Source: Candidatus Staskawiczbacteria bacterium
GTDB lineage: Bacteria > Patescibacteriota > Minisyncoccia > Minisyncoccales > Staskawiczbacteraceae
Direction: 5' to 3'
Assembly (NCBI GenBank): GCA_049513595.1
Contig: JBEKVX010000001.1
Coordinates: forward strand, 1-48,931
Length of the DNA stretch: 48,931 bases
This document shows, piece by piece, positions 3,217 to 46,958 of the stretch. The notes beneath the pieces were generated by a model, which saw nothing but the letters and a program-made list of their open reading frames with translations, did not search any database and was not told the DNA's origin. The translations under genes and the position numbers were made by a program. How positions within the stretch are numbered: position 1 is the first letter of the stretch; every line of letters begins with the position of its first letter.

Positions 3217-3290
3217 GGAGACGTAGCTCAGTTGGGAGAGCGCCTGGCGATTAAACCAGGAGGTCGTAGGTTCAACTCCTATCGTCTCCA
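3217..3290 (+). tRNA. tRNA with an 8-nt anticodon loop (CGAUUAAA); identity undetermined
   Basis: Perfect acceptor GGAGACG/CGTCTCC, D arm GCTC-AGTTGGGA-GAGC, anticodon stem CCTGG/CCAGG and T arm GTAGG-TTCAACT-CCTAT. It is 74 nt to the discriminator, so one nt is extra in the anticodon loop (3248-3255). Confidence 0.65.
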
Positions 3291-3807: not shown

Positions 3808-4323
3808 ATGCCAGAAGAAAATAAAAAAAATAATAAACAAAAAGAGGAATCCTCCTCCGCTAAAGCTACGGAGGATGAGGTTGCGAACCTCAAAAAAGAA
3901 TTGGAAGACGCAAAAGCAAAGTGCGAGGAATATTTAAACGGCTGGAAACGCGAGCGCGCTGATTTTTTGAATTACAAAAAAGATGAAATGGAAAGAATTG
4001 GGCAACTTGTAAAATATTCAAACGAGGAATTAATTTTAAAAATAATTCCAATTTTAGACAACATTTATTTAGCCGAGTCGCACGTTCCAAAAGAATTCGA
4101 AGGCAACGATTGGCTGGCAGGATTTTTACAAATTAAAAAACAATTGTCTGGCTTTCTTTCCAAAGAGGGGATTGAGCCCATAAAAACAACCGGCGAAAAA
4201 TTTGACCCAAACACAATGGAAGCGGTTGAAGGAGAAGGCGAAATTGTTTCAGAAGAACTCCAACGCGGCTACACCCTGCACGGAAAAATAGTCCGCGTCG
4301 CAAAAGTAAAAATTTCAAAATAG
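3808..4323 (+). CDS. grpE: Nucleotide exchange factor GrpE
   Basis: Charged coiled-coil N-terminus followed by a GrpE-like core (WKRERADFLNYKKD ... GYTLHGKIVRVAKV). It sits next to dnaK and dnaJ. Confidence 0.9.
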   Translation: MPEENKKNNKQKEESSSAKATEDEVANLKKELEDAKAKCEEYLNGWKRERADFLNYKKDEMERIGQLVKYSNEELILKIIPILDNIYLAESHVPKEFEGNDWLAGFLQIKKQLSGFLSKEGIEPIKTTGEKFDPNTMEAVEGEGEIVSEELQRGYTLHGKIVRVAKVKISK

Positions 4324-14777: not shown

Positions 14778-14851
14778 GGGCCCATAGTAAACCGGTATTA
14801 CGCCTCCATGGCATGGAGGAAGACGGGGTTCAATTCCCCGTGGGTCCACCA
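14778..14851 (+). tRNA. tRNA-Ala (anticodon GGC), CCA encoded
   Basis: Acceptor GGGCCCA/TGGGTCC with G3:U70, anticodon loop ATGGCAT, T loop TTCAATT, 3' ACCA. Confidence 0.9.
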
Positions 14852-14898
14852 AAATAAAAAGTACTCCCCCAAATAGAGTGTTTTTTTATTACCTGGGC

Positions 14899-14927
14899 TT
14901 GACAAGGGTTTTATATTGGAATATACT
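14899..14927 (+). promoter_or_regulatory. Promoter (TTGACA-17-TATACT)
   Basis: Hexamers at 14899-14904 and 14922-14927. Confidence 0.6.
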
Positions 14928-14933
14928 AATAAA

Positions 14934-15299
14934 AAAAGTGAAGTTCGAAGGTCTGGGGAAGAGGGTAACACCTCAACCCCAAGCAACAAGGAGGGTGCAT
15001 TATGCAAACGCCGCCGGGCTGAGTCCTCGTGTCTGTGGCAATACAGACACAGCAGCTCTCGGGCAAGCGTGTGCCTTTCGTTGTGTCTAACGGATCCATT
15101 GCGAGTCCGCAAGTCCTAGAAAAGTCCTAGCCAGAACCATCCTAGGTCGATTCCAGAGAACTCGGATAAAACAATGTAGAGCATAGACCCAGACGCAACG
15201 TCGGCGCATAAGACCAGCCCACCAGTCGTTTACAGCGACAACACACTCTTCATGGGGGCGGTCGGTCTCTAAACAAGATCGCCGCTCCCGATTTTTTTT
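14934..15299 (+). ncRNA. Candidate GC-rich ncRNA of about 365 nt (unknown class)
   Basis: It is bounded by a consensus promoter and by a strong terminator (15254-15299) whose stem needs G:U pairs, so it forms only in plus-strand RNA. It has no credible ORF, only a 6-codon ORF (MQTPPG) behind AAGGAGGGTG. Multiple hairpins are present, for example gtgtctgt/acagacac. Confidence 0.4.
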
Positions 15300-15314: not shown

Positions 15315-15336
15315 AAAAAAGCTAAGCGAACTTAGC
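15315..15336 (-). terminator. Intrinsic terminator of the HAD gene
   Basis: The minus strand reads GCTAAG-TTCG-CTTAGC followed by a T run. It overlaps the stop codon. Confidence 0.65.
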
Positions 15337-16147
15337 CCATGCTCTCGTTGCCCAGCCACCAATCGATGACGTCCAAAACGCCACGGGTATATGGGTGAAT
15401 CGAGACCTTACCGCGGTGCTCCCTTACAAATTTAATACAACCGGGCGTTGCATTGCTTGGGCATCCGATTCTGCCAACACTCCTGAAGAGTGGAAAATCC
15501 GACTCTGAATCGCCTACGGCAATGCACCAGGAAGGATCCCAACCCTCGATTCCCATCAGGAACTTTACTGCGGTTCCTTTGCTGACACCGGCAGGAATTA
15601 TGTTAATTGCCCTGTTAAAGTAGCGCTCAACCTTCAGCCGGCGTCTTTTTATCCATTTGTACAATGACCAGCCATGCCTGCGCCATTGTCTTTGTATGAT
15701 ATCGTTTATGGCGGGTTCCAACTCGACCGAAGACCCAGCTTTTTTTTCCAAGCTTTGGCACACCATGTAGCCCAAGTATCTTTGCAGATACCTGTGTCTG
15801 GCCAGTATCGCCGGCACTTTTTTGTTTGCCACCCATTTGAAGAATTTCTCCATGTCGGGCGTGATTGCCGGATTCATTTTCACTTCACGAGTAGTGGGAT
15901 TAAAAAGCGCAGCGCCGCCTTCTACAATCATCCATGAATTTACCATCCCGAAAAAATTGGCCATCAGCTCGACAGAATTTCTGTCTCTGCCAGAGCAGAG
16001 CCGAATACTGGGTCCGTCTCCCACATGGCCGCACCGAGCCAGACGAGCAATTCCGGCGTTTGCTTCATAGTAATCAAGGCAAACGTTTCCGTCTGATGAC
16101 GTAAGGCACCCGTCTATGTCCAAAAGCACGCCAAATTTATTGTCCAT
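15332..16147 (-). CDS. HAD-superfamily hydrolase (Cof/HAD-IIB-like phosphatase)
   Basis: DIDGCL (DxDG motif I) and GDSESD (motif IV). Confidence 0.7.
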   Translation of the reverse strand: MDNKFGVLLDIDGCLTSSDGNVCLDYYEANAGIARLARCGHVGDGPSIRLCSGRDRNSVELMANFFGMVNSWMIVEGGAALFNPTTREVKMNPAITPDMEKFFKWVANKKVPAILARHRYLQRYLGYMVCQSLEKKAGSSVELEPAINDIIQRQWRRHGWSLYKWIKRRRLKVERYFNRAINIIPAGVSKGTAVKFLMGIEGWDPSWCIAVGDSESDFPLFRSVGRIGCPSNATPGCIKFVREHRGKVSIHPYTRGVLDVIDWWLGNESMG

Positions 16148-16271
16148 GGTTTCCCCCGCGTTAGAAAGTCCGATTGAAATGTTAAAGACCAGAAGACCTT
16201 TTATAATATTGTATCTTTAAGATGTTGTTGTCAATCTTGCTTTGCTAATTTATTTTTGGTATAAATATATT

Positions 16272-17510
16272 ATGGTATTTAATAAAAAAATAATTTATTC
16301 GATTGCCTTGGTTGTGGCTTTCATCGCTGTTTTTGGTTTGGGTATTTGGGTCGGCGTTACAAAAATTGCTTATCACGTGCCGCAGCCCGGCACAATTGAT
16401 TTTTCGCTTTTTTGGGACGCGTACGGAAAACTTCAGCAAAATTTTATTGACCCATCAAAAATTGACAACCAAAAAGTGATTTACGGAGCCATTGAAGGAA
16501 TGACAAATTCTTTAGGAGATCCGTACACGGAATTTTTTAATCCTCAGCAGGCGCAAATATTCCAATCGGATTTAGCCGGTTCATTTGACGGCATTGGCGT
16601 GGAAATTGGCATGAAAAATGATTTGCTGACCGTGATTGCTCCTCTGCCCGGAACTCCAGGTGACAATGCAGGATTAAAGTCCGGAGATGAAATTTTAAAA
16701 ATAAATGGGAAGGATGCCACAAACACGACAGTAGACGAGGCGGTGGATTTAATCCGCGGGCCAAAAGGAACTTCTGTTACTTTAAATATTTTTAGAAATG
16801 GATGGAGCAGCGCAAGGGACTTTAAGATTACGAGAGATACAATTGTAGTCCCGTCAATGAAGTGGTCATTGAAAGACAACGACGTTGCCTATATACAAAT
16901 TTTCCAATTTGACGAAACGCTTCCTTCTGATTTCAAGACAGCAGCTCTTCAAATTTTACAAAGTCCGGCAAAAAAAATTGTATTGGACTTAAGGGGCGAC
17001 CCCGGAGGATATCTTGAATCCGCCCAGGATGTTGCCGGCTGGTTTTTGCAAAACGGGCAGACAGTGGCAGCCGAGGACTTTGGAAAAAACAAAACAGAAG
17101 ATTGCGGAGTCAATAAATCCGTTGTAGTCAACGGAGAAACAGAGTGCTTATATGTTGCGCAAGGAAACGCCGAACTGGCAAATTATCCAATTGTTGTTTT
17201 GATTGACCAGGGTTCTGCCTCCGCATCAGAAATTTTAGCCGGCGCCCTGCGCGATAACAAAAATATAAAATTAATCGGAACAAAGTCATTTGGCAAGGGT
17301 TCGGTTCAGGAAGTCGTAAATTTAAATGGCGGTTCATTTTTGAAAATTACAATTGCCAGATGGCTGACTCCAAAAGGAAATTCAATTTCAGAAATTGGAT
17401 TGACTCCAGATGTAAAAGTTGATATCACCGACCAAGACATATCAGCCAAAAAAGACCCGCAACTTGATAAAGCCCTTGAAATTGTGCAATCTATGCCCAC
17501 AGGAAAATAG
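16272..17510 (+). CDS. Carboxyl-terminal processing protease (S41) with PDZ domain
   Basis: GIGVEI...PLPGTPGDNAGLKSGDEILKING (PDZ), GSASASEI and KSFGKGSVQ motifs. Start taken at ATG 16272 (MVFNKK...). Confidence 0.88.
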   Translation: MVFNKKIIYSIALVVAFIAVFGLGIWVGVTKIAYHVPQPGTIDFSLFWDAYGKLQQNFIDPSKIDNQKVIYGAIEGMTNSLGDPYTEFFNPQQAQIFQSDLAGSFDGIGVEIGMKNDLLTVIAPLPGTPGDNAGLKSGDEILKINGKDATNTTVDEAVDLIRGPKGTSVTLNIFRNGWSSARDFKITRDTIVVPSMKWSLKDNDVAYIQIFQFDETLPSDFKTAALQILQSPAKKIVLDLRGDPGGYLESAQDVAGWFLQNGQTVAAEDFGKNKTEDCGVNKSVVVNGETECLYVAQGNAELANYPIVVLIDQGSASASEILAGALRDNKNIKLIGTKSFGKGSVQEVVNLNGGSFLKITIARWLTPKGNSISEIGLTPDVKVDITDQDISAKKDPQLDKALEIVQSMPTGK

Positions 17511-46397: not shown

Positions 46398-46958
46398 ATG
46401 CTAACACATACTGACTTAAAACCGGGGGTTCAATTTATTTATGAAGGCCAGCCGTGGGAAGTGCTGACTGCCGAAATGATGAAAATGGCGCAAAGACGTC
46501 CGGTAATTCAAAGCAAAATAAAAAATTTAATAGACGGCAGGGTTCAGGAAAAAAACTTCCAGCAGGGAGATGTTTTTGACGAGGCCGATTTGCAGAAAAA
46601 AGATATTAAATTTTTGTACCAAAGCAAGGGACAATATTTTTTCTGCGAAACAAATGACCCGTCGAAAAGATTTTTCTTTACAGAAAACCAAATTGGAACC
46701 CAGGCAAAGTTTCTAAAACCAAATGAAATTGTGACCGGAATTTTATTTGAAGAAAAAATTATAACTTTTAAATTGCCAATTAAGGTTGTGCTAAAAGTAA
46801 AAGAATCTGCCCCTGGAGTTAAGGGCGACCGCGCCCAAGGCGGAACAAAAGAAGCGACATTGGAATCCGGTGCAGTTATTCAGGTTCCTCTGTTTGTTGA
46901 AGAAGGCGACACAATTGAAGTCAACACCGAAACCGGAACATATGTAAAGCGGGTATAA
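46398..46958 (+). CDS. efp: Elongation factor P
   Basis: 186 aa, with a KOW-like N-terminus and a C-terminal VPLFVEEGDTIEVNTETGTYVKR. Confidence 0.93.
   Translation: MLTHTDLKPGVQFIYEGQPWEVLTAEMMKMAQRRPVIQSKIKNLIDGRVQEKNFQQGDVFDEADLQKKDIKFLYQSKGQYFFCETNDPSKRFFFTENQIGTQAKFLKPNEIVTGILFEEKIITFKLPIKVVLKVKESAPGVKGDRAQGGTKEATLESGAVIQVPLFVEEGDTIEVNTETGTYVKRV

Follow-up and report, generated by a model that had tools for sequence, protein, structure and literature searches.

Introduction

Several described bacterial systems resemble the element reported here, an RNA of about 365 nucleotides (nt) predicted in a 48,931-nt stretch of DNA from a Candidatus Staskawiczbacteria genome (hereafter, the window), directly 3' of the gene for tRNA-Ala(GGC). 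In leader-peptide attenuators (the trpL/pheL type, and also the tnaC and erm leaders) a strong Shine-Dalgarno (SD) sequence and a very short open reading frame (ORF) precede an intrinsic terminator, as they do in the element, and the ORF ends within one strand of a helix, the opposite strand being able to pair instead with the terminator's 5' arm, an arrangement that is predicted here too; in addition, the Pro-Pro-Gly-stop that ends the short ORF of the window's copy is a plausible stalling signal. Dual-function small RNAs (sRNAs) such as RNAIII of Staphylococcus, SR1 of Bacillus and SgrS of E. coli are, like the element, several hundred nt long, have a promoter and a terminator to themselves, fold into many hairpins and contain a short ORF. 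Minigenes (bar of phage lambda and the pentapeptide minigene of the 23S rRNA) likewise place an ORF of few codons after a strong SD; what would matter is that the ORF is translated, and not the peptide that results. The large orphan non-coding RNAs OLE, ROOL, GOLLD and the raiA motif are comparable as GC-rich, highly structured, ORF-free intergenic islands in AT-rich genomes. Finally, the tRNA-linked repeats (RtT of E. coli) and the cassettes found at tRNA 3' ends occupy, as the element does, a variable spot directly 3' of a tRNA gene.

To our knowledge, regulatory RNAs of the candidate phyla radiation (CPR), or Patescibacteria, are almost undescribed. The genomes of these bacteria are too small for much ballast; the host genome considered here, recovered from peat metagenomes, comprises 765 kb (98% complete, 38.4% GC), and both this size and its relatives place it among the CPR. 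We propose that positions 14935-15299 of the window are probably a functional structured RNA gene of a new family, and that this family appears to be formed by rare, fast-diverging and so far undescribed RNAs of 350-500 nt located directly 3' of tRNA-Ala(GGC) in a few Patescibacteria. An earlier note, made by eye from the letters of the window, had already taken this segment for a stand-alone candidate non-coding RNA. The note's reading has held up: the segment has its own promoter and terminator, no coding signal and a strong predicted structure, and distant homologues of the same design occur at the same locus. Such a non-coding, GC-rich, folded promoter-to-terminator unit with one ribosome-loading site is a concrete and clonable candidate for a new RNA family.

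Results

A promoter-to-terminator unit behind tRNA-Ala(GGC)

The limits of the element are given by a sigma-70-type promoter and a strong intrinsic terminator, both of which had been read by eye in the earlier note next to a tRNA-Ala gene; the promoter, the terminator with its T8 and the identity of the neighbouring tRNA were all confirmed (Table 1). From the position of the promoter, transcription is expected to start at about 14934-14936. The terminator stem has 14 bp instead of the 13 bp counted before, and is formed by two stacked helices (15254-15261:15282-15289 and 15263-15268:15276-15281, pair probability 0.98-1.0 in ViennaRNA) with 2 G:U pairs and one bulged U, the T8 occupying positions 15292-15299. 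Because of these G:U pairs, the terminator is specific to the plus strand. It should be mentioned that a simple promoter/terminator scan did not list this terminator, and that its helices come from the ViennaRNA fold.

The transcript delimited in this way presents a folding z of -5.9 on the plus strand, and none of 100 dinucleotide shuffles was as stable. Its predicted fold consists of a 5' hairpin, a core domain, a small hairpin and the terminator (Table 1). The core is a long irregular rod closed by the helix 15016-15025:15212-15220 (pair probability 0.82), followed by 15069-15075:15203-15209 and then by 15079-15088:15191-15200, with a side hairpin at 15029-15050.

The segment had also been described as GC-rich within AT-rich DNA. 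The first part of this statement stands, since the element has 51.9% GC versus 38.4% for the genome; the second part has to be restricted, because the two flanking genes have 45-52% GC and the AT-rich DNA around the element consists of short spacers only.

The Rfam 15 families, which included RNase P, tmRNA (transfer-messenger RNA), SRP (signal recognition particle) RNA, 6S, T-box, OLE, ROOL, GOLLD, raiA, group I/II introns and HEARO, were compared with 14930-15299 at gathering scores and also at E<=10; no match was obtained, and none in any related copy either.

The ribosome start site is what the copies have in common

The only block of the element that is recognisably similar to other copies is AGCAAC..GGAGG..ATGCAAAC..GGGCTGA, which comprises the SD and a mini-ORF of six codons, both already noticed before and confirmed here (Table 1). 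In all five full-length copies, the window's included, there is exactly one strict SD (GGAGG or GGGAG), followed after 5-7 nt by an ATG that opens an ORF of 4-12 codons; by chance, a strict SD-ATG site of this kind has a probability of 4-7% per sequence. The peptides encoded by the full-length copies are MQTPPG, MQTRADLVGAI, MHWP, MHWPLHRFSAW and MKTQAKLIKRLD. Three copies share MHWP, encoded with a synonymous CAC/CAT change, and the frame in which the conserved GCTGA is read varies across the copies (G-GC-TGA, GCT-GAC and G-CTG-A). Since the peptides and the frame differ while the nucleotides are kept, the conserved thing is the place where a ribosome starts and not the product.

This result divides the suggestion that MQTPPG is a regulatory leader peptide. 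In its favor, the SD, the ATG and a mini-ORF are present in every full-length copy, and the window encodes EF-P; on the other hand, the peptide itself is not conserved. As Pro-Pro-Gly is present in one copy only, that of the window, the argument built on this motif is not supported.

Related copies and their distribution

The loci of the relatives were obtained through the relatives of the HAD protein encoded next to the element, whose contigs were fetched. Seven other copies of similar design were observed at six other loci (L043, L047 with two copies, G429, L096, L046 and L097). They sit directly 3' of tRNA-Ala(GGC), mostly convergent with a HAD hydrolase gene, and this tRNA gene is the constant 5' neighbour of every copy whose 5' flank is on the contig. 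The shared order is tRNA-Ala(GGC), a TTGACAAGG promoter, an ORF-free body of 350-500 nt and a GC stem with a T-run. In L043, a metagenome-assembled genome (MAG) from NCBI whose HAD protein is 61% identical, the body has ~500 nt and the GC stem is followed by T7 and by the convergent HAD gene. In L047, a JGI contig (HAD 58% identical), a single tRNA-Ala is followed by two diverged tandem units, L047_A and L047_B, and both have a promoter and a terminator of their own. The full unit of G429 was found by BLASTN from L043 (E 1e-11) and has ctpA next downstream on the same strand, and L096, L046 and L097 present only the 3' parts of units, at contig ends.

The promoter motif TTGACAAGG(G/C)T is found directly after tRNA-Ala in L043, L047 and G429; the promoter of the window and its terminator flank (the T-run with (A/G)CAAAAA after it) recur almost unchanged in the copies. 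Between these flanks the copies have diverged strongly, and a network of short blocks is what links them. The GC content of all copies is 45-52%, in loci of 36-46% GC. The folding z of the related copies is -3.9, -4.0, -3.4 and -1.7, so that, with the window's copy counted, a fold significantly more stable than that of the shuffles (z -3.4 to -5.9) is predicted for four of five full-length copies, the exception being L047_A with -1.7. By eye, hairpins occur at matching positions with different sequences; the sequences are few and very divergent, and their MAFFT alignments were too unreliable for RNAalifold or for the counting of pairs.

With regard to the window's copy, it resembles the second L047 unit in one block of ~41 nt (pairwise E 0.57). 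With a covariance model derived from the single sequence 14984-15093, the best match was the SD/mini-ORF block of G429 (E 0.026) and the fourth was the L047_B block (E 0.38). On the basis of this one-block similarity and of the covariance-model matches, the membership of the window's copy in a common family with the related copies is probable, not proven. Of the features proposed for the family, the position, the TTGACAAGG-type promoter, the terminator, the ORF-free body and the SD/ATG with an ORF of 4-12 codons are present in it.

The distribution of the element is very patchy. BLASTN found the body in none of 24 genomes of the same genus and in none of about 400 genomes of the same order, and there is no paralogue in the own genome. 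In the closest species, G022, the HAD gene begins ~50 nt after tRNA-Ala, and the syntenic site holds no element. Among 38 further tRNA-Ala(GGC) loci (29 from the same family and 9 among the relatives of G429), a long cassette was observed in G183 only, and it holds an ORF of 60 amino acids (aa). When the related copies were compared by BLASTN with the relatives, G429 alone matched; a metagenome scan with the HAD protein found nothing. Pattern scans of genome and metagenome contigs for a tRNA T-arm followed by TTGACAAGG showed mostly unrelated cargo behind the same promoter. No similarity to the element was found by BLASTN in phages and plasmids, and viral contigs scanned with the pattern SD..ATGCAAAC..GGGCTGA gave a single chance match inside a phage gene. 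An enrichment of the word AGTCCTAG was tested and dropped.

The neighbouring proteins have different histories. The HAD protein of the window is 43% identical to that of G022 versus 58-67% to those on element-bearing contigs, and the acyltransferase encoded beside the element is 83% identical to that of G022. Because the HAD protein is far from that of G022 and nearer to those of element-bearing contigs while the acyltransferase is so close, these identities suggest that the element and the HAD gene may have been exchanged or replaced as a block.

Table 1. Coordinates of the element, of its parts and of neighbouring or related features. Positions without a prefix are those of the window.
Feature	Position	Strand	Basis or remark
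Sigma-70-type promoter, TTGACA-17-TATACT	14899-14927	+	11/12 consensus positions
Predicted primary transcript	14935-15299	+	~365 nt, 52% GC; from promoter and terminator positions
5' hairpin, stems TGGGG/CCCCA and GAGG/CCTC	14951-14984	+	Pair probability 0.98-1.0; 2-bp outer stem 0.61
SD and mini-ORF block	14989-15022	+	SD AAGGAGGGTG 14989-14998; ATG 15002; 6-codon MQTPPG; TGA 15020-15022
Core domain, long irregular rod of ~200 nt	15016-15220	+	Pair probability 0.82-1.0 for the named helices
Region 2, GACCAGCCCACC	15212-15223	+	Candidate antiterminator strand, predicted pairing
Small hairpin GTCGTT/AGCGAC	15225-15239	+	Pair probability 0.90
Intrinsic terminator	15254-15299	+	14-bp stem, 7-nt loop, then GA and T8; ViennaRNA, -24.1 kcal/mol
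Acyltransferase gene	ends 14617		Upstream neighbour of tRNA-Ala and the element
tRNA-Ala(GGC)	14778-14851	+	ARAGORN; Rfam tRNA 55.5 bits
Terminator of the convergent HAD hydrolase gene	15319-15338	-	3' limit of the element's locus
HAD hydrolase gene	15332-16147	-	Convergent with the element
ctpA	16242-17510	+	Same strand as the element, ~950 nt beyond
EF-P gene	46398-46958	+	All three EF-P domains present
Tandem RNA units of L047	L047:1120-1966	-	
Small hydrophobic ORFs in relatives	L019:3820-3930, L020:3830-3980, L047:2135-2240	-	
Unannotated ORF of 229-262 aa	L020:3041-3730, L043:4458-5246	-	

Discussion

A possible translation-sensing switch

As a mechanism, we propose that the RNA would sense the translation of its own throw-away mini-ORF. 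The mini-ORF reaches its final codons and its UGA within the strand 15016-15025 (region 1), which is predicted to close the core of 200 nt by pairing with 15212-15220. A ribosome sitting or stalling at the Pro-Pro-Gly-stop would free 15212-15223 (region 2), and the freed strand could pair with the first 10 nt of the 5' arm of the terminator (15254-15263, region 3). A lingering ribosome would in this manner favor read-through of the terminator; the arrangement mirrors that of helices 1:2, 2:3 and 3:4 in leader-peptide attenuators. A transcript extended past the terminator would cross the convergent HAD gene in antisense and continue towards ctpA; in G429 and G183, where the locus has no HAD gene, it would enter ctpA directly, this being the next same-strand gene downstream in both.

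The predicted duplex energies are -14.2 (1:2), -14.1 (2:3) and -24.1 kcal/mol (3:4, the terminator). Rounded to -14, -14 and -24 kcal/mol, they are within the range for the E. coli trp leader. The 2:3 pairing has a probability of 0.57 on a transcript that ends before the 3' arm of the terminator, and of 0.95 when the ORF is held single-stranded. Among the mechanisms considered this switch is the one that we prefer, modelled from predicted pairings; in itself it is rather doubtful, and it is not clearly conserved. A separately transcribed non-coding RNA gene, belonging to a small tRNA-Ala-linked family and working through a translation-sensing mechanism of this kind, is what we tentatively put forward as the best joint explanation of the locus.

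Several observations weigh against this explanation, some of them against the RNA gene and others against its switch. Predicted folding is equally strong on the minus strand (z = -6.4), so the strand assignment rests on the promoter and on the terminator with its G:U pairs. The place of the window's copy in the family rests on position, flanks and the one block of ~41 nt. The copies present in peat metagenomes (four DNA runs) show no difference within the element, and because all of them are identical no covariation was shown; among the sequencing runs listed as containing the sequence there is no RNA run. The element is dispensable, as it is missing from G022 and from nearly all the relatives searched. 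With respect to the switch, the same three-strand layout was obtained in 18 of 393 spacer-only shuffles (4.6%), which makes it only marginally unusual; it was not seen in L047_B or in L043_A and looks different in L047_A and G429. Furthermore, the terminator always wins at equilibrium, about 190 nt of stable structure lie between regions 1 and 2, unlike in classical attenuators, and there is no same-strand gene within ~950 nt downstream in this genome.

If the switch is true, it offers a simple model for coupling translational capacity (EF-P activity, proline supply) to gene expression; if it is false, the locus still documents the fast turnover of the spot 3' of tRNA-Ala. It is unlikely, on the other hand, that these RNAs constitute a new CPR-specific class of "ribosome-reporting" RNAs, folded transcripts of 350-500 nt in which one ribosome would be loaded on the mini-ORF and its occupancy would switch a distant terminator; in the window's copy the EF-P-dependent signal would be the Pro-Pro-Gly-stop that closes the ORF. 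Were this the case, such an RNA would set antisense or sense transcription of neighbouring envelope or metabolic genes (HAD phosphatase, CtpA protease), and the class would point to an undescribed regulatory strategy of the whole lineage.

Alternative explanations

The segment could encode a small protein, in plus-strand frames of 50-70 aa, in minus-strand ORFs of 91-104 aa or in the mini-ORF read through its TGA, and several stop-free frames of 80-105 codons do cross it. Nevertheless, the plus-strand ORFs begin in or before the promoter and have no SD; this includes the two listed at 14878-15090 and 14916-15119, which had been judged not credible before, and the ORFs of the segment have no Pfam match. 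The longest ORF, of 104 aa on the minus strand, runs into the tRNA gene, and a search of 1.84 billion representative proteins gave no relative of it. In the related copies stops interrupt every frame and no frame is common to them, and tblastx among them gave no frame-consistent similarity. Under genetic code 25 one recoded TGA extends a few frames (that of the mini-ORF to 53 aa), but table 11 suffices to read the flanking genes open, which gives no hint of TGA recoding, and a small protein is very unlikely. A sponge for CsrA of the CsrB/RsmZ type, with the SD-like GGA motifs as binding sites, would agree with the size of the RNA, close to that of CsrB, with its own promoter and terminator and with the CsrA homologue encoded in the genome (C22:5039-5194, 88.6 bits). 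It is highly improbable: no copy is enriched in GGA, AGGA or GGAG, and that of the window has 4 GGA versus 5.6 +/- 1.8 in shuffles. A very divergent SRP RNA or 6S RNA could be invoked since neither SRP RNA (RF00169, RF01854) nor 6S RNA (RF00013) has a match anywhere in the 98%-complete assembly, including a 57%-GC gap at C47:5065-5301 that was checked as a possible missing SRP RNA and gave no Rfam match. A housekeeping RNA, however, would be kept in the genus. The element is not one, because it is missing from the 24 same-genus and 400 same-order genomes, and its syntenic site is empty in G022; moreover, no SRP domain-IV motif is visible by eye, there is no Rfam match even at E<=10, and RNase P RNA (C2:41006-41358, 121.6 bits) and tmRNA (C18:12912-13427, 92.9 bits, an unusually long match of 516 nt) are located elsewhere in the genome. 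We consider an SRP or 6S RNA extremely improbable.

The remaining alternatives accept the same unit and differ in what it does. The RNA gene could act in trans, as an independent sRNA of regulatory or dual function, comparable to RNAIII or SR1, whose body or loop would bind target mRNAs or a protein, the translation of the mini-ORF being incidental or RNA-stabilising. The independent promoter, the very strong terminator and the large stable folded body are consistent with this, and at five of seven loci there is no same-strand gene to regulate, because the element is convergent with the next gene; the two diverged tandem copies of L047, each with promoter and terminator, also resemble sRNA paralogues. 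What is conserved is, however, the SD/ATG region and not a loop, the distribution is very patchy, and for a dual-function sRNA the peptide is too short and too variable, which leaves this alternative as somewhat unlikely. The segment could also be a relic, that is, what decay has left of the interior of an earlier small gene or mobile cassette, kept only through a promoter and a terminator that still work, with its structure as a by-product of GC-rich, palindrome-rich sequence. A decaying cassette is conceivable because the spot 3' of tRNA-Ala(GGC) is variable and a block exchange is possible, as hinted by the identities of the HAD proteins (43% with G022 versus 58-67% with element-bearing contigs). 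Indeed, the site is a hot spot: in other Patescibacteria genomes unrelated protein genes stand under this promoter behind tRNA-Ala, G183 has a 60-aa ORF of membrane type there, an unannotated ORF of 229-262 aa lies beside the tRNA in G009 and L043, the element is missing in G022, and its interior diverges very fast. Against decay, genomes of 0.5-0.9 Mb delete junk quickly and yet at least seven loci keep 350-500 nt, with the GC content held 6-13 points above the surroundings, a folding z of -3.4 to -5.9 in four of five copies and the SD/ATG site kept in all five full-length ones. In addition, the segment is not a pseudogene of the small genes found at this position in other HAD loci, as it shows no similarity to those small proteins or to any protein, and neither direct repeats nor a duplicate of the tRNA 3' end were found at its flanks. 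A relic is for these reasons unlikely, and a functional RNA gene is the reading that we keep.

Comparison with described systems

By analogy, the element would act most like a leader-peptide attenuator or a dual-function sRNA, and it belongs to no curated RNA family. It is nevertheless a member of neither group, since both a conserved peptide and an adjacent regulated gene are missing. Apart from the structure between regions 1 and 2 mentioned above, it differs from leader-peptide attenuators in having no run of regulatory codons, in the lack of conservation of peptide and frame, in the absence of a directly downstream same-strand gene in this genome, and in that the switch is not evident in all copies. 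The peptides of dual-function sRNAs are conserved and functional, whereas the copies of the element conserve just the start site, and the element is related to these RNAs neither in sequence nor through Rfam. Known minigenes, in turn, are not located inside a folded RNA of 350-500 nt with a dedicated promoter and terminator. Compared with the large orphan RNAs, the element matches none of their Rfam models, is far rarer and much less conserved, and is smaller than OLE, ROOL and GOLLD. Unlike the tRNA-linked repeats and cassettes, it has no copy of the T-arm or 3' end of its own tRNA, no flanking repeats and no recombinase.

Other observations at the locus and in the window

A copy of the tRNA T-arm or 3' end as the origin of the element was examined separately and rejected, since the score with the own tRNA was not significant (p = 0.9) and no significant direct or inverted copy was found. 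In the L043 copy, positions 4060-4075 on the minus strand contain CGAGTTCGACT, identical to the T-arm of the tRNA-Ala of G429 and not to that of its own tRNA (z 4.2); it may represent a T-loop-like module or the remnant of an old tRNA. The unannotated ORFs of 229-262 aa of G009 and of the L043 genome are similar in sequence and lie directly upstream of tRNA-Ala(GGC), and by eye they look like a homing-endonuclease-type insertion.

In the interval between the acyltransferase gene and tRNA-Ala, the window has two perfect palindromes and no small ORF. In relatives, the same interval holds ORFs of 33-49 aa with a hydrophobic stretch and their own promoter and terminator (Table 1). In the window there is also an inverted repeat of 19 nt, 79% complementary, formed by 14866-14884, in the tRNA trailer and upstream of the element's promoter, and by 15240-15258, an arm that reaches into the 5' arm of the terminator. 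In transcripts that start at the tRNA promoter and read through, pairing of the two arms could rival the terminator; the repeat was dropped as a general feature because the other copies do not have it.

Two further sites of the window are related to tRNAs. Positions 2441-2508 gave a weak Rfam tRNA match (35.6 bits), which ARAGORN did not call, and also a weak match to the tmRNA model. At 3217-3290, ARAGORN called a tRNA to which it assigned no identity, with the four-base anticodon 'atta' and an Rfam tRNA score of 60.4 bits; this tRNA may have an anticodon loop of 8 nt or a small insertion.

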